Virus record (IMG/VR): IMGVR_UViG_2713896785_000007
DNA: 13,281 nucleotides
DNA from: a virus
Taxonomy: Duplodnaviria; Heunggongvirae; Uroviricota; Caudoviricetes
Direction: 5' to 3' (one strand)
The notes beneath the pieces are model-generated. The model was not told the DNA's origin, ran no database searches, and saw only the letters and a list, made by a program, of their open reading frames with translations. The translations under genes and the position numbers were made by a program. Of this stretch, positions 1-12,915 are shown piece after piece. Every line of letters starts with the position of its first letter. Within the stretch, counting starts at the first letter, position 1.

Positions 1-64
1 AAGGGGCACAGGACTATATCCGCACTCAGTGTACTAAGCAGGCTTTTTATTATCCGGAGGATAC

Positions 65-289
65 ATGAAGAAATTACGGATAACCGTAGAACCTTTTCAG
101 GGAACAATTCCGTTCCGTATTTTGCAGCGTGGTCGTGTTCTTGTTGAAGGTTCGTTCAGTGGTAAATGTACGCAATTACACTCCCGGACCTTTCGGGTGA
201 ATGCCACGAATGAAGAGCTAACCGTGGAGTGTACGATGAATGCCGCTAAATGCCGCATGGTATCCGCTGCATTACAGCCAGTGTGTTGA
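65..289 (+). CDS. Hypothetical small protein (74 aa), Cys-rich, no recognisable family
   Basis: Complete ORF with a strong Shine-Dalgarno (GGAGG at 55-59, 5 nt before the ATG at 65). The ATG overlaps the TGA (66-68) of an upstream reading frame that is open from the window edge (ATGA coupling). Lies upstream of the putative cos site, where lambdoid phages carry lysis-distal accessory genes. No family recognised from the sequence. Confidence 0.45.
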   Translation: MKKLRITVEPFQGTIPFRILQRGRVLVEGSFSGKCTQLHSRTFRVNATNEELTVECTMNAAKCRMVSAALQPVC

Positions 290-332
290 GCGACCTTATT
301 ATCCATGCGCGGTATTGTCGCCGTATTCCTGC

Positions 333-382
333 NNNNNNNNNNNNNNNNNNNNNNNNNNNNNNNNNNNNNNNNNNNNNNNNNN
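333..382. other. Assembly gap (run of 50 N)
   Basis: Directly visible as N characters; true length and content unknown. Confidence 0.97.
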
Positions 383-520
383 GGGAGACTCCTCTGCGCG
401 AGTGTGCGGGGATAATCAAAAACGATACACACCGGGGTTTACCGCGTTAACGGAGCGCGGCGTTCTCCCCTCATAGTCGCCAGTCCGGTGCGATGGTGGA
501 AGAAACTGGATTTTGTTGCA

Positions 521-700
521 AATGATAACCATTATCATTTTTGCGGGTCCTCCTGGTGGGGTGGGCCTGAACACGGGGCGGGCGGCGCGGAAAAAGGCGC
601 ATTTTTGTGATTTTATCGTCATCATCATCATGATGGTAACTTGTTGTTTTTAATGCTGTTAGTATTAAAAAGATGATGGTTGTGGTTGTTTTTTGTTCGA
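521..700. other. Putative cos region (cosN-like G-rich element ~571-590, A/T-rich cosB-like segment with lambda-like CGTCAT...TAACTT..TGTTTTTA motif ~617-660)
   Basis: Non-coding stretch ending ~190 bp before the small terminase start, as in lambda. ACACGGGGCGGGCGGCGCGG resembles lambda cosN (ACG|GGGCGGCGACCTCGCGG). Downstream CGTCATCATCATCATGATGGTAACTTGTTGTTTTTAATG resembles lambda cosB CGTCATAACTTAATGTTTTTATTT. Comparison is from memory of the lambda sequence; the exact nick positions cannot be set. Confidence 0.4.
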
Positions 701-775
701 CATCTTTATATGGCGGCATTTCTTTACAAAAAAACAGAGTCACTTCTGTTCTGCGGTTTATGTGGAGGGATGTAA

Positions 776-1252
776 ATGGACGGCGAGCTGAAAAATATGA
801 AGTTAAATATTAATCAACTGGCAGCCCTTTCAGGTCTGCACCGGCAGACTGTTGCCGCCAGAATGGCGGATGTTCCTCTTGCACCAGGCAGTAATGAAAA
901 GAAAAAACTGTATCTCCTGACGGATTTGATAACTTCGTTGCTGGAAAAACCACCATCTTCCGAAGATGAGGATATGGATCCTCACGCTCGTAAGGCATGG
1001 TATCAGTCCGAGCGCGAGCGTCTTAAATTTCAGCATGAAACTGTTCAGCTTGTGCCAGTCAGTGATGTCAGGCGGTCCTTTTCTGTCGTGGTGAAAGCGA
1101 TAGTTCAGGTACTGGAAACCTGGCCTGACCGGCTGGAGAGGGACAGGGGGTGGACTGCATCACAACTGAATGAAGTACAGATTGTGGTTGATGAGATCCG
1201 CGACACACTGGAAAAGGCAGTCATTGACTGTTGTGATGAGGCCGATATGTGA
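776..1252 (+). CDS. Terminase small subunit (Nu1-position; N-terminal helix-turn-helix DNA-binding protein)
   Basis: 158-aa ORF immediately upstream of, and overlapping, the large terminase start (ATG at 1247-1249, TGA at 1250-1252, GTG at 1249). GGAGGG Shine-Dalgarno 6 nt upstream of the ATG at 776. N-terminal segment NINQLAALSGLHRQTVAARM looks like a helix-turn-helix. Acidic C-terminus. Assignment is by position and architecture, not by sequence identity to lambda Nu1. Confidence 0.75.
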   Translation: MDGELKNMKLNINQLAALSGLHRQTVAARMADVPLAPGSNEKKKLYLLTDLITSLLEKPPSSEDEDMDPHARKAWYQSERERLKFQHETVQLVPVSDVRRSFSVVVKAIVQVLETWPDRLERDRGWTASQLNEVQIVVDEIRDTLEKAVIDCCDEADM

Positions 1253-3372
1253 ATCAGGTGAACGAGAGCCATAGCCGCGCATCCGATATCTGGCGCGAAG
1301 TGGCCTCGCTGTTTCGCCCACCCAGCCGGTTACCAGTAGCGGAAGCCATCAGGCGTTATATGCGGGTTCCACGGGGAGCCAATACTTCCGGTCCGTGGGA
1401 GTCATCGCTGACGCCCTATATGATTGACCCCATTAATACATTATCAGCCCGTGAATATGACGCGGTGGTGTTTGTGGGACCTGCGCGAACCGGGAAAACC
1501 GAAGGGCTGATTGATGGCTGGATTGTGTACGGCATCATCTGTGATCCGGCGGATATGCTGGTGGTGCAGATGACTGAGACGAAGGCGCGTGAGCATTCCA
1601 GAACGCGTCTTTCCAGGACGTTTCGCCACAGTCCGGAGGTCAGCAAGCGCCTCAGTCCTTCCCGTAATGACAACAACGTCCACGATAAAATGTTTCTTGA
1701 CGGCTCCTTCCTGAAGATTGGCTGGCCGTCGATCACCGTCTTTTCCTCTTCGGATTACCGTCGTGTGGCGCTGACGGATTATGACCGTTTCCCTGAAAAC
1801 GTGGACGGGGAAGGGGATGCCTTCACGCTGGCCTCAAAGCGTACCACCACCTTTATGTCTTCGGGGATGACCCTGGTCGAGAGTTCACCGGGGCGGGATA
1901 TCACCGATACCAAATGGCGTTGTGGTGGCGCACATGAGGCACCGCCAACAACGGGGATCCTGTCACTGTATAACCGGGGAGACCGCCGCCGGTGGTACTG
2001 GCCGTGTCCGCACTGCGGGGAATATTTTCAGCCGGTGATGGATAACATGACCGGATACCGGAATAACCCGGATTTTGTGGCTGCCGGTCAGGCTGCCCGT
2101 CTGATGTGTCCGCATTGTCGCGGGCTGATTGCCCCTGAGCAGAAACGCGAACTGAATAACCAGGGGATCTGGCTTCGTGAAGGTGAACGGGCGGCGGCGG
2201 ACGGCAGTATCACCGGAACGCCACGAAACTCCCGGATTGCGTCATTTTGGATGGAGGGGCCAGCTGCGGCGTTTCAGACCTGGGAACAACTGATTTTTAA
2301 ACTGCTGGCGGCAGAAGAAGAGTATGAGCGAACCGGCAGTGAAGAGACCCTGAAAGCGGTGGTGAACACCGATATCGGACGACCCTATCTGCCCCGTTCA
2401 GCCACGGAACAGCGTAAAAGTGAACTGCTTGAACAGCGTGCCGAGCCGTTTCCCCGGCGATCTGTGCCGGATGGTGTGCGTTTTATTGAGGCAACGGTTG
2501 ACGTACAGGGCGGTAAAAATCGCCGTTTTGTTGTGCAGATCACCGGATACGGAGAGCAGGGGGAACGCTGGATTGTTGATCGCTACAACATCCGGCATTC
2601 ACTGCGCTGCAGTCCCAACGGTGAAAGTCTGCCGGTTGATCCGGCGGCATATCCGGAGGACTGGGATTTGTTGCTGACGGATGTGTTCCATAAAACATGG
2701 CCGCTGGCTTCTGATCCGGATGTGCGCATGCGTCTGATGGCCATGGCGGTGGATACGGGAGGGGAAGCCGGGGTGACAGATAACGCCTATCGTTTCTGGC
2801 GTCGTTGCCGGAGTGACGGACTGGGCAACAGGGTGTTTCTGTTCAAGGGGGATGGACTTCGCCGTGACAGGCTGATTAACCGAACCTTCCCGGATAATAC
2901 CGGCAGAAGTGCCCGCCGTGCCAGAGCCAGTGGCGATGTCGCGCTGTGGCTGGTTCAGACGGATGCGTTTAAGGATCGTGTAAATAATGCCCTGTGGCGT
3001 GACACACCAGGGCCGAACTATATCCACTTTCCCGACTGGCTGGGGCGGTGGTTTTACGATGAGCTGACCTATGAAGAGCGCGGCAGTGACGGAAAATGGC
3101 GAAAACCGGGCAGGGGCGCTAACGAAGCGTTTGACCTGCTGGTTTATGCGGATGCGCTTGCCGTTCTGCATGGTTACGAAAAGATCCGCTGGCCCTCCGC
3201 ACCGGACTGGGCACAGCGGGAAACGTGGCTCGTCTTCCCGCAGGAGCGTTCTGGTGAAACGGTATCCCCGGAACTGACGGCCGGGGCAGAAAAACGCCGT
3301 CGCCGGAAGAAAAAACTGCGGACGGAGCGTGCGGAAGATAATCCATGGATAACATCAGGAGGCTGGTTGTGA
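1249..3372 (+). CDS. Terminase large subunit, GpA family (lambda gpA-like)
   Basis: 707-aa ORF. Walker A-like motif VVFVGPARTGKTEG. Paired CPHC motifs (WYWPCPHCGEYF ... LMCPHCRGL) resembling the lambda gpA zinc-ribbon region (ACPHCGEEQ). Basic C-terminal tail. Probable GTG start at 1249 with GAGG 7 nt upstream, overlapping the small-subunit stop. Confidence 0.93.
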   Translation: MNQVNESHSRASDIWREVASLFRPPSRLPVAEAIRRYMRVPRGANTSGPWESSLTPYMIDPINTLSAREYDAVVFVGPARTGKTEGLIDGWIVYGIICDPADMLVVQMTETKAREHSRTRLSRTFRHSPEVSKRLSPSRNDNNVHDKMFLDGSFLKIGWPSITVFSSSDYRRVALTDYDRFPENVDGEGDAFTLASKRTTTFMSSGMTLVESSPGRDITDTKWRCGGAHEAPPTTGILSLYNRGDRRRWYWPCPHCGEYFQPVMDNMTGYRNNPDFVAAGQAARLMCPHCRGLIAPEQKRELNNQGIWLREGERAAADGSITGTPRNSRIASFWMEGPAAAFQTWEQLIFKLLAAEEEYERTGSEETLKAVVNTDIGRPYLPRSATEQRKSELLEQRAEPFPRRSVPDGVRFIEATVDVQGGKNRRFVVQITGYGEQGERWIVDRYNIRHSLRCSPNGESLPVDPAAYPEDWDLLLTDVFHKTWPLASDPDVRMRLMAMAVDTGGEAGVTDNAYRFWRRCRSDGLGNRVFLFKGDGLRRDRLINRTFPDNTGRSARRARASGDVALWLVQTDAFKDRVNNALWRDTPGPNYIHFPDWLGRWFYDELTYEERGSDGKWRKPGRGANEAFDLLVYADALAVLHGYEKIRWPSAPDWAQRETWLVFPQERSGETVSPELTAGAEKRRRRKKKLRTERAEDNPWITSGGWL

Positions 3373-3581
3373 GCACAGAAGAAGCCAGAGAAATGATACA
3401 GCGGTACCGTGAAGCGGAAATGGCCGTACTGGAGGGAAAGTCTGTCACCTTCAACGGGCAGCAACTGACGCTGGAAAGCCTTTCTCAGATCCGCGCCGGA
3501 CGTCAGGAGTGGGAACGCAGGCTTGCCGCGATGGTGAGCCGCAGGCGGGGAAAACCGGGATTTAAACTGGCGAGGTTTTAA
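3369..3581 (+). CDS. W: Head-tail joining protein gpW-like
   Basis: C-terminus RRRGKPGF matches lambda gpW RRRGPAGF. A GTG at 3369 is preceded by AGGAGG (3356-3361), giving a ~70-aa protein equal in length to lambda W (68 aa). The longest ORF would start at the ATG at 3345. Overlaps the terminase stop at 3370-3372. Confidence 0.82.
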   Translation: MSTEEAREMIQRYREAEMAVLEGKSVTFNGQQLTLESLSQIRAGRQEWERRLAAMVSRRRGKPGFKLARF

Positions 3582-5083
3582 TGGCAATTATTGATGATGT
3601 GATCGGCGTGTTTTCCCCTAGGTGGAAAGCAGCCAGACTGCGTTCAAGGGCGTTAATCATGGCCTATGAGGCGGTGAAACCGACCCGGACACATAAAGCC
3701 CGGCGGGAAAATCGCTCTGCTGATCAGCTCAGTAAATACGGTGCGGTTTCCCTGCGGGAGCAGGCCCGTTTTCTGGATATCAATCATGACCTGGTGATTG
3801 GTGTGTTTGACAAGCTGGAAGAGCGGGTGATTGGTGCCAGGGGAATTATTGTGGAGCCTCAGCCATTACGAAAAAACGGGGAAATGGCGGCTGAGCTGGC
3901 TGCGGATATCCGCCGTTTGTGGGCTGAATGGTCCGTGAGTCCGGATGTGACAGGGCAGTATACCCGTCCTGTGCTTGAACGTTTACTGCTGCGGACCTGG
4001 CTGCGGGATGGTGAAGTGTTTGCGCAGATGGTCAGTGGTGCGGGAAACGGTCTGGAACGGACGGCGGGAGTGCCATTCTGGCTTGAGGCGATGGAGCCGG
4101 ATTTTGTTCCCATGCGCACTGATGAATCCGCCGGACTGAATCAGGGGGTTTTTCTTGATGAGTGGGGAAGACCGAAAAAATATCTGGTTTATAAAAATTA
4201 TCCGGTCAGCGGCCGGCAGAGTGATACGAAAGAAATCGCTGCCGGAAAAATGATCCACCTGAAGTTCACTCGTCGTCTGCACCAGACGCGAGGCTCATCC
4301 ATGTTATCGGGGGTGCTGATGCGGATCAGTGCCCTTAAGGAGTATGAGGATGCGGAACTGACAGCGGCGCGTATTGCTGCGGCGCTGGGACTGTATATCC
4401 GTAAAGGTGACGGACAGGACTATGAAGATCCGGGGATCAAAGAAACCGAGCGGGAAGTCCATATCACCCCGGGTATTATTTATGACGATTTGCGCAAGGG
4501 CGAGGATATCGGCATGGTCAAATCTGACCGTCCCAATCCCAACCTTGAAACTTTCCGCAACGGCCAGTTGCGTGCAGTGGCAGCAGGCAGTCGTCTGAGT
4601 TTTTCCAGTGCGGCGCGTAACTATAACGGCACCTACAGCGCCCAGCGGCAGGAGCTGGTCGAGTCCACGGATGGTTACCTGATCCTGCAGGACTGTTTTA
4701 TTGGCGCGGTAACCCGCCCGGTGTACCGGACATGGCTGAATATGGTGGTTGCGGCAGGTCTGCTGAAAATTCCGGCGGATGTGGAGATGAAAACGCTATA
4801 TAACGCGACGTATTCCGGTCCGGTGATGCCGTGGATCGACCCGGTTAAGGAAGCTGAAGCCTGGAGAATTCAGATCCGGGGTGGTGCAGCGACAGAATCT
4901 GACTGGGTGCGTGCCGGCGGGCGCAATCCGGATGAGGTCAAACGTCGCCGCAAGGCTGAAATTGATGAAAACAGCAGACTGGGGCTGGTCTTTGATACGG
5001 ATCCCGTCAACGACAAAGGAGGCAACAGTGCCGGAACTGAACGACAGTATCAGCGCGACACCGAAAGCCAGCATGAAGAATAA
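3581..5083 (+). CDS. B: Portal protein (lambda gpB family)
   Basis: 500-aa ORF in the lambda B position. Start ATG overlaps the W stop (TAATG). Shares recognisable similarity with lambda gpB, including the YEEAE/YEDAE and VxAARIAA region. Confidence 0.93.
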   Translation: MAIIDDVIGVFSPRWKAARLRSRALIMAYEAVKPTRTHKARRENRSADQLSKYGAVSLREQARFLDINHDLVIGVFDKLEERVIGARGIIVEPQPLRKNGEMAAELAADIRRLWAEWSVSPDVTGQYTRPVLERLLLRTWLRDGEVFAQMVSGAGNGLERTAGVPFWLEAMEPDFVPMRTDESAGLNQGVFLDEWGRPKKYLVYKNYPVSGRQSDTKEIAAGKMIHLKFTRRLHQTRGSSMLSGVLMRISALKEYEDAELTAARIAAALGLYIRKGDGQDYEDPGIKETEREVHITPGIIYDDLRKGEDIGMVKSDRPNPNLETFRNGQLRAVAAGSRLSFSSAARNYNGTYSAQRQELVESTDGYLILQDCFIGAVTRPVYRTWLNMVVAAGLLKIPADVEMKTLYNATYSGPVMPWIDPVKEAEAWRIQIRGGAATESDWVRAGGRNPDEVKRRRKAEIDENSRLGLVFDTDPVNDKGGNSAGTERQYQRDTESQHEE

Positions 5084-7052
5084 ATCCTGGTTCAGGATGC
5101 AGGCTGGGGTGCCGGGTGACGCGGATATTTATATTTATGACGAGATTGGTTTCTGGGGAGTTACCGCGAAGCAGTTTGTCAGCGAACTGAATGCTCTGGG
5201 TGATATCACCCACATTAATCTCCATATCAATTCACCGGGTGGCGATGTCTTTGAAGGCATCGCCATTTTTAATGCCCTGAAAAATCAGGGGGCGACCATT
5301 ACCGTGTATGTGGATGGCGTTGCCGCCTCGATGGCATCTGTGATTGCGATGGCCGGTGATACGGTCATTATGCCGGAAAATGCCTTCATGATGATCCATA
5401 AGCCATGGGGATTCAGTGGCGGGGATGCTGAGGATATGCGCAGTTATGCCGATTTGCTGGATAAAGTCGAATCGGTACTGTTGCCAGCCTATGCGCAGAA
5501 AACCGGAAAAACCACCGATGAAATTGCCGCCATGCTGGCGGATGAAACCTGGATGTCCGGTGCCGAATGTCTGGCACACGGATTTGCTGACCAGGTGACA
5601 CCCGCTGTTGAGGCAATGGCATGTATTCAGTCAAAACGTACAGAGGAATTTAAAAAGATGCCGGAATCCATCCGAAACATGATTACTCCGCCACGCAACA
5701 GTGCCCCGCGTGATACCACAGTGACAATCCCTGCACCGGCGGTAACAGAACCATCACCGGTACCGGCAGTGTCTGATGAGGCGACCATTCGCGCCCGCGT
5801 TATGGCAGAACAGAAAGCCCGCATGTCAGGCATTAACGATCTGTTTGCCATGTTCGGCGGTCGCTATCAGACGCTTCAGGCACAGTGCGTGGCTGATCCT
5901 GACTGTTCGCTGGAAATGGCCCGTGAACGACTGCTGAATGAAATGGGCAAGGAGTCCTCGCCGACCAACAAAAATACACCGGCCCATATTTATGCCGGAA
6001 ACGGCAATTTTGTGGGAGACGGGATCCGCCAGGCGATGCTGGCCCGTGCCGGATTTGAAAATGTCGAGAAGGATAACGCCTATAACGGGATGACCCTGCG
6101 TGAATGGGCTCGCATGTCACTGACGGAGCGCGGTATTGGGGTGGCCAGTTATAACCCCATGCAGATGGTCGGGCTGGCGCTGACGCACAGCACCTCTGAT
6201 TTTGGCAATATTCTGCTGGATGTGTCGAACAAGGGGCTGATCCAGGGCTGGGAGGAATCAGAAGAAACCTTCCAGAAGTGGACCCGTAAGGGACGCCTGT
6301 CAGACTTCAAAACAGCGTATCGCGTGGGGATGGGCGGTTTTGGTTCTCTGCGCCAGGTTCGTGAGGGGGCGGAGTATAAATACATCACCACCTCAGATCG
6401 CAAGGAGACCATTGCACTGGCCACTTACGGGGAGATTTTCTCCATCACCCGCCAGGCCATTATCAATGATGATCTGAATATGCTGGTGGACGTGCCGATG
6501 AAGATGGGGCGTGCGGCGAAGGCAACGATTGGTGACCTGGTCTACAAGGTGCTGACGGATAACCCGAAACTGTCCGACGGTAAGGCGCTGTTCCATGCCG
6601 ATCACAAAAATATTGCCACCGGGGGGATCTCCGTTTCCGGACTGGATGCGGCCCGTCAGATGATGCGCCTGCAGAAAGAAGGCGATCGTGCCCTGAATAT
6701 CCGTCCGGCCTTTATGCTGGTACCGGTGGCACTGGAGACGGTGGCGAACCAGACCATCAAATCGGCCAGTGTGAAAGGGGCGGATGCAAACGCCGGTGTC
6801 ATTAACCCTATCCAGAACTTTGCTGAGGTGATTGCAGAAGCGCGTCTTGATGCGGCAGACCCGAAAACCTGGTATCTGGCGGCGGCACAGGGCACTGACA
6901 CCATTGAAGTGGCCTGGCTGGATGGTGTGGACACGCCATACATTGATCAGCAGGAAGGTTTCACCACTGACGGCATTGCCACAAAAATCCGTATTGATGC
7001 CGGAGTGGCACCACTTGACTGGCGCGGGCTGGTGCGTTCGTCGGTGGCCTGA
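5028..7052 (+). CDS. Fusion protein: ClpP-like (S14) serine protease domain + linker/scaffold-like segment + HK97-fold major capsid protein domain
   Basis: Reading frame is open from 4881. Likely start is the GTG at 5028 (AAAGGAGG at 5015-5022) or the ATG at 5073. N-terminal domain carries ClpP-type catalytic motifs (GVAASMASVIAMAG with Ser nucleophile; MMIHKPWG with His). A Pro/Ala/Thr-rich linker follows (~5690-5800). C-terminal ~300 aa occupy the major capsid position. Domain call for the capsid part is by position and size, not by a motif I can name. Confidence 0.88.
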   Translation: MPELNDSISATPKASMKNKSWFRMQAGVPGDADIYIYDEIGFWGVTAKQFVSELNALGDITHINLHINSPGGDVFEGIAIFNALKNQGATITVYVDGVAASMASVIAMAGDTVIMPENAFMMIHKPWGFSGGDAEDMRSYADLLDKVESVLLPAYAQKTGKTTDEIAAMLADETWMSGAECLAHGFADQVTPAVEAMACIQSKRTEEFKKMPESIRNMITPPRNSAPRDTTVTIPAPAVTEPSPVPAVSDEATIRARVMAEQKARMSGINDLFAMFGGRYQTLQAQCVADPDCSLEMARERLLNEMGKESSPTNKNTPAHIYAGNGNFVGDGIRQAMLARAGFENVEKDNAYNGMTLREWARMSLTERGIGVASYNPMQMVGLALTHSTSDFGNILLDVSNKGLIQGWEESEETFQKWTRKGRLSDFKTAYRVGMGGFGSLRQVREGAEYKYITTSDRKETIALATYGEIFSITRQAIINDDLNMLVDVPMKMGRAAKATIGDLVYKVLTDNPKLSDGKALFHADHKNIATGGISVSGLDAARQMMRLQKEGDRALNIRPAFMLVPVALETVANQTIKSASVKGADANAGVINPIQNFAEVIAEARLDAADPKTWYLAAAQGTDTIEVAWLDGVDTPYIDQQEGFTTDGIATKIRIDAGVAPLDWRGLVRSSVA

Positions 7053-10226: not shown

Positions 10227-10269
10227 CAGTTATTGATGGTATCAGAGGACATTTCAGGAGGTGACCACG

Positions 10270-12915
10270 ATGGCAGGTAATTTTGCCGATCTGACAGCCG
10301 TGCTGACACTGGATTCTGCCCGTTTTTCTGAAGAGGCAGCGCGGGTAAAAAAAGAGCTGGGTGAAACCAGTGCGCTTGCTGATTTGATGTCCGGGAAAGT
10401 CAGTCAGTCTTTCAGAAAACAGGCTGATGCTGCTGAGCAGAGTCTGAGCCGACAGGCGCTGGCTGCACAAAAAGCCGGGATATCAGTCGGACAGTATAAG
10501 GCTGCCATGCGCACACTGCCCGCACAGTTCACGGATATTGTCACTCAGCTTGCCGGTGGTCAGAATCCCTTCCTTATCATGCTGCAGCAGGGGGGGCAGA
10601 TCAGCGATTCATTCGGTGGACCGCTCAGCCTGCTTACCCTGCTGAAGGAGGAACTTCTCGGGATCAGGGATGCCTCTGAATCATCAGAGGAGTCGCTGTC
10701 AGATACGGCAAATGCACTGGCTGAAAATGCCCGGAATGCCGGTGAGCTGGGACGATTTATGTCGGTGGCCCGTGTGGCGGCAGGTGGCGGGGTTGCCGTA
10801 CTGGCCGCGCTTGCTGCCGCCGCCTGGCAGGCAGAGCAGGCTGACCGGGCCTTATTGCGTTCACTGACCCTGACCGGAGGGGCTGCTGCCACCACAACGG
10901 CAGAATTGTGGAAAATGGCCGGGGTGATCAGCGATGAAGCCGGTGGTGGTATCAGACAGGCGGCAGAAAATCTGGCCCGTCTGGCAGAAAGCGGGAAATA
11001 TACCGCCGGGCAGCTACGGATCATGGGGGAAACCTCTCAGAGATGGCTGCAGACGGTGGGGGACGATGCCGGGAAGGTGGAAAAAGCCTTTGAAGGGATT
11101 GCAGCAGATCCGGTGAAGGCGCTGGCCTCCCTGAATCAGCAGTATAACTTCCTGAGCGTTTCCCAGTTACGCCATATTGATGAGCTTGAGCGCACGAAAG
11201 GTAAACAGGCTGCGGTGACGGAGGCGATGTCCCTGTTTGCGGATGTCATGAATGCACGTCTGGAGCAACTTGATAAAGCGGCCACGCCGGTGGAAAAAAT
11301 CTGGGACGATGTTAAAACCTGGACTTCTGACGCATGGGCATGGATAGGTGATCATACACTGGGGGCACTCAGTCTGATCACTGACGTGGTGGCCGGAACC
11401 GTTGAACAGGTGAAGCTGCTGCTTGTGCAGGGGGATCTGGCGCTGGCTGAATTTATTCAGTCAGCCTGGGAAACGACAAAGAATGTGCCCGGCGTTGGTG
11501 CGTTGTTTGGTGAACTGGCAGAAGAGAACCGCGTATTTATTGAGAAAACAAAACGTGATGAACTGGCGCTGAGAAAATCCATTGCGGAACGGGATGCGCG
11601 TATACGCCAGGGGGAAATGGGGTACATCAACCGTTCGCGTGCAACAGGCGTCAGCAAAGGTCCGGGGCAGCAGGAAGCCGTCAGCCGTCTGGCTGAAGAG
11701 CTGACAGGTAAAAAGCATACATCACCGAAAACGCGCTCTGCCGGGGAGAGGGAAGAGGAGCAGGCAAGAGAGGCTCTGCTTGCCCTTGAAGCTGAGCTCA
11801 GGACGCTGGAAAAACACAGCGGTGCGAATGAGAAAATCAGCCGGCAGCGCCGTGATTTATGGAAGGCGGAAAGTCAGTATGCGGTCCTGAAAGAGGCTGC
11901 CACGAAACGACAGTTATCTGAGCAGGAAAAATCCCTGCTGGCGCATAAAGACGAGACGCTGGAGTACAAACGCCAGCTGGCTGAGCTGGGCGACAAGGTT
12001 GAATACCAGAAACGCCTGAATGAGCTGGCACAGCAGGCGGTGCGGTTTGAAGAGCAGCAGAGCTCGAAGCAGGCCGCCATCAGCGCAAAAGCCCGCGGTC
12101 TCACTGACCGTCAGGCGCAGCGGGAGTCTGAAGCGCAGCGTCTTCGGGACGTGTACGGTGATAATCCGGCTGCGCTGGCGAAGGCCACATCGGCACTGAA
12201 GAACACCTGGTCTGCGGAGGAGCAGCTTCGTGGAAGCTGGATGGCCGGGCTGAAGTCCGGCTGGGGCGAGTGGGCGGAAAGTGCGACGGACAGTTTTTCG
12301 CAGGTTAAAAGTGCTGCCACGCAGACCTTTGACGGTATTGCACAGAATATGGCGGCGATGCTGACCGGTGCAGAGGCAGACTGGCGGGGATTCACCCGTT
12401 CGGTGCTGTCCATGATGACAGAAATCCTGCTTAAACAGGCCATGGTGGGCATTGTCGGGCGTATCGGCAGCGCCATTGGCGGTGCTTTCGGTGGTGGTGC
12501 ATCTGCTTCCTCGGGGACGGCCATTGAGGCTGCGGCGGCGAACTTCCATTTCGCGACCGGAGGATTTACGGGGACGGGCGGCAAATATGAGCCTGCGGGG
12601 ATAGTTCACCGCGGGGAGTTTGTTTTCACGAAAGAGGCAACCAGCCGGATAGGTGTGGGGAATCTTTACCGTCTGATGCGCGGCTATGCGGAAGGTGGTT
12701 ATGTGGGTGGTGCCGGAAGTCCGGCGCAGATGCGGCGGGCGGAAGGTATTAATTTTAATCAGAACAATCACGTGGTGATTCAGAACGACGGTATCAACGG
12801 ACAGGCGGGGCCGCAGCTGATGAAGGCGGTGTATGACATGGCCCGCAAGGGGGCGCAGGATGAGATTCAGGCGCAGATGCGTGATGGCGGCGTCTTTTCC
12901 GGAGGCAGGCGATGA
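10270..12915 (+). CDS. H: Tail length tape measure protein gpH
   Basis: ATG at 10270 preceded by AGGAGG (10255-10260); the longest ORF starts at GTG 10261. The N-terminal ~110 aa and the C-terminal ~400 aa (e.g. LTLQAELRTLEKHAGANEKIS.QRRDLWKAE, TGGFTGTGGKYEPAGIVHRGEFVFTKEATSRIGVGNLYRLMRGYA) are near-identical to lambda gpH; the middle is divergent. Confidence 0.96.
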   Translation: MAGNFADLTAVLTLDSARFSEEAARVKKELGETSALADLMSGKVSQSFRKQADAAEQSLSRQALAAQKAGISVGQYKAAMRTLPAQFTDIVTQLAGGQNPFLIMLQQGGQISDSFGGPLSLLTLLKEELLGIRDASESSEESLSDTANALAENARNAGELGRFMSVARVAAGGGVAVLAALAAAAWQAEQADRALLRSLTLTGGAAATTTAELWKMAGVISDEAGGGIRQAAENLARLAESGKYTAGQLRIMGETSQRWLQTVGDDAGKVEKAFEGIAADPVKALASLNQQYNFLSVSQLRHIDELERTKGKQAAVTEAMSLFADVMNARLEQLDKAATPVEKIWDDVKTWTSDAWAWIGDHTLGALSLITDVVAGTVEQVKLLLVQGDLALAEFIQSAWETTKNVPGVGALFGELAEENRVFIEKTKRDELALRKSIAERDARIRQGEMGYINRSRATGVSKGPGQQEAVSRLAEELTGKKHTSPKTRSAGEREEEQAREALLALEAELRTLEKHSGANEKISRQRRDLWKAESQYAVLKEAATKRQLSEQEKSLLAHKDETLEYKRQLAELGDKVEYQKRLNELAQQAVRFEEQQSSKQAAISAKARGLTDRQAQRESEAQRLRDVYGDNPAALAKATSALKNTWSAEEQLRGSWMAGLKSGWGEWAESATDSFSQVKSAATQTFDGIAQNMAAMLTGAEADWRGFTRSVLSMMTEILLKQAMVGIVGRIGSAIGGAFGGGASASSGTAIEAAAANFHFATGGFTGTGGKYEPAGIVHRGEFVFTKEATSRIGVGNLYRLMRGYAEGGYVGGAGSPAQMRRAEGINFNQNNHVVIQNDGINGQAGPQLMKAVYDMARKGAQDEIQAQMRDGGVFSGGRR

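Follow-up and report, generated by a model that had tools for sequence, protein, structure and literature searches.

A PHROG 2571 gene between Rz and cos of a Shiga-toxin-type lambdoid prophage, with a predicted beta-sandwich product

The viral record IMGVR_UViG_2713896785_000007 (Caudoviricetes), a stretch of 13,281 nucleotides here called the window, is the late region of an Escherichia coli lambdoid prophage of the Shiga-toxin (Stx) type. Positions 1-800, the N run excepted, are 100% identical to E. coli 2013C-3264 (CP027544), and positions 1-332 are 99% identical to the Stx2a-converting phage Stx2_95. The gene order runs from the end of Rz through an open reading frame (ORF) at 65..289 to cos, the terminases, the portal, a protease/capsid fusion and the tail genes. 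We describe here the ORF at 65..289 on the + strand, a protein-coding gene of 74 codons with an ATG start, whose product (74 residues, 8.3 kDa, pI 9.8) is a member of PHROG 2571. An earlier reading made from the letters alone (the sequence-only reading) had placed this ORF, behind a strong ribosome-binding site, in an accessory slot between the lysis cassette and cos, and this description holds. A Shine-Dalgarno sequence, GGAGG, lies at 56..60 (+), four bases 5' of the ATG, and relatives carry variable cargo in the same slot: TonB_C, DUF3950, KilA-N/ORF11CD3 and a weak Acb2/Tad1-like ORF.

The 3' end of the Rz (i-spanin) gene occupies positions 1..68 (+), its translation ending in DYIRTQCTKQAFYYPEDT before the stop; the corresponding upstream frame is annotated as endopeptidase or 'lysis protein' in two related loci (L001 and L004). 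The ATG of the ORF (65-67) overlaps the TGA stop of Rz (66-68) in an ATGA. The proposed translational coupling to the upstream frame therefore has its overlap, but this is a lineage-specific and recent arrangement and not a general one. A short form of Rz, ending at a TAG or TAA 23 nt 5' of the ORF, is found in 83 of 169 related loci, whereas in the long form, which is that of the window (65 loci), this stop codon reads CAG and Rz is extended by nine codons (ending TKQAFYYPEDT). The overlap of Rz and the ORF thus exists because the ancestral Rz stop TAG reads CAG. The block TTTTTRTTATCCGGAGGAT is kept 5' of the ORF in divergent alleles. On the + strand, we detected no promoter-like sites in window positions 1-800, and the only terminator-like site lies at 101-116 (5 pairs), inside the ORF, with counts not above those of shuffled sequences. 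As neither a promoter nor a terminator of its own flanks the gene in the window, it probably shares the Q-antiterminated late transcript with the lysis genes; it would be translated from its own Shine-Dalgarno sequence, with additional coupling to Rz through the ATGA overlap in the window lineage.

The ORF sits within a segment of about 273 bp, at 32..304 (+), that carries the new Rz tail, the Shine-Dalgarno sequence and the ORF, and that is missing in Stx phages of the VT2-Sakai type. The 106 Stx phage records of this type match the window over positions 1-31 only, ending inside Rz, and homology is back at about position 305, where the alignment with VT2-Sakai resumes at ATGCGC.GTAT.GTC.CCGTATTCCTGC. 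Since homology breaks at 31 and resumes at about 305, the ORF is a clean indel of about 273 bp. The G+C content of the ORF is 47%, versus 55% for the window. A 9-bp direct repeat, TTATTATCC, brackets the ORF at 47-55 and 296-304, and its right copy falls on the right-hand limit of the indel seen against VT2-Sakai. We considered the repeat as a target-site duplication and rejected this, as its chance expectation is about 0.2 in a stretch of such length (a rough estimate) and the left copy lies inside the indel boundary; it may be a coincidence or microhomology from recombination.

Downstream of the indel, a conserved block at 305..470 without a credible gene, which lies outside the ORF gene and contains the N run, is common to phages that have the ORF and phages that lack it, and is found whatever packaging module they carry among those compared. 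The sequence-only reading had suggested that more might be hidden in the adjacent gap. The 50 N at 333-382 correspond to 24 bases (ATTAACAGAGACCGCAGCCCGACA) both in the 100%-identical genome and in the 99%-identical phage Stx2_95, and on this comparison the length of the N run is arbitrary (a placeholder or mask) and does not measure a true unknown of 50 bp, so that nothing is hidden there. Rfam searches of the window and of a gap-free relative gave nothing credible (PrrF scored 20.6 bits against a gathering score of 90), and folding of the downstream conserved block as RNA gave no signal (z = 0.12). VT2-Sakai annotates part of this block as 'orf48'. The cos site was located by three short matches that are colinear and equally spaced with lambda cosQ/cosN, namely ATGATAACCATTATCA at 522-537, CGGGTCCT at 544-551 and ACGGGGCGGGCGGCG at 573-587. 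It lies about 230 window bases 3' of the ORF, or about 205 bp if the N run is read as 24 bp.

Length alone says little about whether the ORF is a gene, as many spurious ORFs of similar size occur in the window. We therefore rely on its pattern of change across relatives. The homologous ORF was recovered from 169 loci, giving 39 distinct DNA sequences, of which 32 are alleles of 225 nt. The annotated frame has no stop in any of these 32 alleles, whereas stops interrupt the other five (medians of 2-6), and each minus-strand frame of the region has stops in at least some alleles. Mean pairwise differences at codon positions 1, 2 and 3 are 6.0, 4.6 and 9.3. Among divergent alleles, the ratio of non-synonymous to synonymous substitution (dN/dS, Nei-Gojobori) is 0.25-0.5 at dS of 0.3-0.9; for Rz it is 0.3-0.7, and the ORF has an equal or lower value in most of the same locus pairs. 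The gene is found in 1244 of 5426 complete E. coli genomes (about a quarter), with up to 6 copies per genome, and the exact protein is present on at least 1000 contigs. Judged by these substitution patterns, ORF 65..289 is a genuine gene under purifying selection, and the concern that it might lack conservation in related prophages or selective constraint is dispelled on both counts.

That the ORF is a chance or decaying frame without function is, in our view, very unlikely. Besides the abundance of ORFs of this length, such a view could draw on the 'hypothetical' label that the protein carries in all databases and on a dN/dS above 1 in one lineage pair. That excess is not significant, however, and no frame other than the annotated one stays open in every allele, dN/dS stays at 0.25-0.5 over dS of up to 0.9, the family built by hidden Markov models extends to other genera, and a confident fold prediction and a conserved Shine-Dalgarno block accompany the frame; the analysis of selection in these sequences largely refutes it. 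Positive selection in the pair concerned, the window clade versus the P0015 clade, was also considered and rejected (Fisher p 0.25-0.6). As a separate observation, the excess of amino-acid changes between the alleles of the window or L121 and of L155, which are close in other respects, has the pattern expected of a diversifying burst, and it is not significant on 74 codons.

No family match for the ORF protein was found in Pfam or NCBIfam, in agreement with the statement that no family could be recognized. A family does exist in PHROGs, where the protein matches PHROG 2571 (function unknown) with E = 1.3e-27 and 97.7 bits, residues 1-73 aligning with profile positions 100-172, and is thereby placed in it. 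A profile search of 1.84 billion representative proteins returned 48 cluster representatives at E <= 0.001, mostly of 71-81 residues, and homologs of 71-81 residues from Xenorhabdus, Yersinia and Salmonella cover the same profile segment; the family spans prophages of Escherichia, Salmonella, Yersinia and Xenorhabdus. The PHROG 2571 profile has 291 columns and includes members of about 280 residues (P0065) with N- and C-terminal extensions around the domain (residues 95-162), whereas the window protein is the bare domain. In a family alignment of 25 sequences, M1, K2, V6, F17, Q21, G33, K34, Y43 and V45 are nearly invariant. Searches of PDB sequences with the family profile gave only noise (alpha-crystallin, E 0.2-0.7). 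PADLOC gave no match at E <= 1 for the ORF protein, three homologs or the partner protein introduced below, and a literature search on the family, the protein and lysis-cassette or accessory genes found nothing.

The sequence-only reading had counted six cysteines in 74 residues and proposed a small metal-binding or redox protein. The count was in error: the protein has four cysteines (C35, C56, C63 and C74). They do amount to 5.4% of its residues, C35 and C56 are the only cysteines invariant among 14 aligned E. coli and Salmonella homologs, and many close homologs have a C38 that would form a CxxC with C35. The window protein itself lacks C38, however, and Salmonella-type alleles lack C63 and C74. 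In the 25-sequence family alignment there is no conserved cysteine column, position 35 usually being A, T, V or S in the wider family and position 56 usually H and sometimes L, Y or W. No consistent set of four ligands emerges, and families of zinc and redox proteins were not matched. With no conserved cysteine column, a metal or redox role is not a property of the family, and on the aligned sequences we regard a Cys-rich metal-binding or redox protein as highly improbable. Neither this proposal nor that of hidden gap content holds.

An AlphaFold2 model of the ORF protein (predicted local distance difference test score 87.9, predicted template modeling score 0.71) is all-beta, with six strands and one short helix, and the fold is confidently predicted to be a single small beta-sandwich. 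The maximum Kyte-Doolittle score is 0.8 in a 15-residue window, indicating no signal peptide, membrane segment or other hydrophobic segment; as the protein is basic and lacks a hydrophobic segment, it is predicted to be soluble and cytoplasmic. Foldseek searches of PDB and BFVD gave no match at E <= 0.001, the best E values being about 0.09-0.17. The matches below this level are beta-sandwich, lectin and CBM modules (LecB/PA-IIL, CBM6/35/36, hemocyanin C-terminal domain) and, likewise generic, the FN3-like domains of lambda J and PBSX XepA, all at 3-16% identity. The likeness, as far as the model goes, is that of a common fold and not of a family. The model has the generic fold of a binding module, with no recognisable active site.

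The slot after Rz invites comparison with lambda bor and other late-region morons, which are likewise optional, lie between Rz and cos and have a G+C content below that of the neighbouring structural genes. The lambda Rz-cos region has no sequence similarity to the ORF (tblastn E > 1, noise). Bor is a lipoprotein made in lysogens from a gene on the opposite strand. Unlike bor, the ORF is co-directional with the late operon and has no lipobox, signal peptide, promoter or terminator of its own; its product, with no hydrophobic N-terminus and no similarity to Bor, does not qualify as a Bor-type or other outer-membrane lipoprotein. Nor is it an Rz1-type o-spanin, as lipobox and signal peptide are lacking and relatives have a separate call for Rz1 (PF06085) within Rz. 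With respect to morons more generally, the ORF shows presence/absence polymorphism between related phages and a deviating G+C content (47% vs 55%), while the flanking promoter and terminator of an autonomous moron are absent from the window.

The genomic positions of homologs are varied. In E. coli and Salmonella the gene follows Rz beside three unrelated packaging modules (DUF1441+GpA, HNH+Terminase_2 and Nu1+GpA); in L163, L167 and L169 a homolog lies between the Q antiterminator gene and the holin gene, which is the place of stx in Stx phages; and in L189 one lies directly upstream of a DUF1441 small terminase gene. From this distribution, the gene is cargo of the late operon that is both optional and mobile. 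An accessory role in the virion or in DNA packaging, for instance as a decoration protein or one that binds cos, we consider most improbable, as the gene assorts independently of the three packaging and head modules, is lacking in phages whose head genes are the same and is found elsewhere between Q and the holin gene. One relative (L171) has two paralogs in a single Rz-cos slot, a short form of 68 residues at 4429-4635 right after Rz and a long form at 4968-5861, with a phrog_10235 ORF between them; the long form, of about 286 residues, has a Walker-B-like motif (VVIIDDVE) in its C-terminal part.

Taking locus, family and model together, we consider it probable, on balance, that the ORF is a real late gene for a soluble beta-sandwich protein, most likely a non-catalytic binder that acts as a dispensable modulator. 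Non-catalytic action is suggested because the protein is of only 74 residues, conserves neither catalytic residues nor metal ligands and has the generic fold of a binding module. With regard to function, our best guess, which we hold with low confidence, is a binding protein without enzymatic activity that is expressed late. Its partner, from the host or the phage, would be bound in the cytoplasm at a late stage of infection, and the protein could serve, for example, as a counter-defence or exclusion factor.

Several observations weigh against this view. The structure prediction was built from only 14 sequences, and no homolog has a known role. Counter-defence is usually needed early, so that a late-expressed gene is an unusual place for it, and late expression is itself not universal in the family, as a Yersinia homolog lies in an early accessory region beside ParDE. 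Comparison of the window or L121 with the P0015 group (L155, of the E. coli O55:H7 CB9615 type) gives dN/dS of 1.5-2.6, from 16-18 non-synonymous versus 2-4 synonymous changes, which is not significant (Fisher p = 0.25-0.6). Lastly, the gene stays linked to the lysis cassette, which could instead point to lysis as its role.

In that case the protein would be a lysis accessory or regulator that tunes holin, endolysin or spanin, and both the linkage to the lysis cassette and co-translation with Rz would be accounted for. We think such a role unlikely. The protein is predicted to be soluble and cytoplasmic, while nearly all of Rz is periplasmic; the coupling to Rz reflects a recent loss of a stop codon and is not conserved; closely related Stx phages with the same Rz end do without the gene; some homologs lie away from lysis genes; and the score of XepA is no better than those of dozens of unrelated beta-sandwiches.

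In deep relatives the gene has a partner. An ORF of 68-71 residues lies 8-82 nt 3' of the gene in 10 loci from three deep branches, namely an E. coli/Salmonella group of 60-63% identity, Salmonella P0082 and Xenorhabdus P0070. The partner belongs to phrog_4280 (PHROG 4280, unknown function) and has the motif DPDNxGxVLGWxVVxxxPWxLxGVYA...GSxRxGxDDF; examples are at 5265-5471 in L150, 5227-5397 in L152, 6319-6534 in L163 and 1736-1951 in L169. It has no Pfam match above the curated cut-off and none in NCBIfam, PADLOC or PDB. A terminator-like G+C-rich hairpin with a T run follows 22-40 nt after the partner stop in four of four contexts, and in these sequences the older arrangement has the look of a compact unit in which gene 1 and gene 2 are followed by the terminator. 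The window lacks the PHROG 4280 partner, as do 170 of the 180 loci with room for it, and no remnant of it was detectable downstream. On these comparisons, the window clade (70-100% identity) has evidently lost gene 2 and the terminator. Two adjacent, co-inherited small genes, as in a type II toxin-antitoxin system, are accordingly not found at the window and exist as a pair in the deep branches. Gene 1 alone is still under purifying selection, and it would therefore work alone and not as half of an obligate toxin-antitoxin pair.

The pair raises the question of whether the window gene is the surviving half of a PHROG 2571 and PHROG 4280 module, either toxin-antitoxin-like or a defence or exclusion pair, in which case the copy in the window would be an orphan and would either neutralise a related partner encoded elsewhere or be decaying. 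Pair and terminator are kept in three deep branches and occupy two distinct genomic slots, both genes encode about 70 residues and are adjacent, and the same slots also house ParE, HigB and ParDE modules. However, neither protein matches PADLOC, Pfam or NCBIfam, and the partner-less clade is the most widespread, with dN/dS of 0.3-0.5 between its sub-lineages; we hold this explanation to be rather doubtful. A further speculation, which we likewise put forward with little confidence, is that PHROG 2571, PHROG 4280 and the terminator form an undescribed mobile two-gene cassette for a new form of counter-defence or superinfection exclusion, of which the version without the partner, now spread among prophages of Shiga-toxin-producing E. 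coli, would be a streamlined derivative that still functions. The cassette would then move between cargo slots of lambdoid late operons.

One relative bears on what the slot may carry. In Xenorhabdus L169 the position after Rz holds an ORF of 80 residues (3699-3941) with a weak Pfam match to Acb2_Tad1_hairpin, a family of anti-CBASS/anti-Thoeris sponges. By analogy this is a weak hint that counter-defence cargo of about this size can occupy the slot. The analogy is one of position alone, as Acb2/Tad1 has no sequence or fold relationship to the ORF protein; Acb2 and Tad1 are not known to be beta-sandwiches of its type.

RefSeq already contained the sequence, as a hypothetical protein, and PHROGs the family. 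The exact protein is found in public collections, the identical CP027544 locus is annotated as WP_032313457 (hypothetical protein), and every E. coli record among the matches listed carries the annotation 'hypothetical protein'. The present analysis adds a corrected count of cysteines, the finding that the gap content is trivial, a confident fold, the analysis of selection, the indel boundaries and the paired-cassette architecture in relatives. The gene is in this sense ordinary, like thousands of other small phage ORFs that are conserved and have no assigned function. If it does encode a counter-defence, exclusion or lysis-tuning factor, it would be a small addition to how Stx-type prophages spread and are induced.

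On the minus strand, an ORF at 97..432 was rejected as a gene because it crosses the N gap, and another at 471..743 because it spans cos. RefSeq has a 90-residue 'hypothetical protein' (WP_100209512) at minus-strand 471-743, crossing the cos region and containing a run of five Asp, and this call looks spurious. Beyond cos, the window encodes a DUF1441-type small terminase at 776-1252, a GpA-type large terminase at 1249-3372, a portal ORF at 3581-5083 (500 residues) and a tape-measure ORF at 10261-12915 (884 residues), the last two uninterrupted in the window. In CP027544, RefSeq marks the portal, protease/capsid fusion and tape-measure genes as pseudogenes, and the window prophage may be more intact than this relative.
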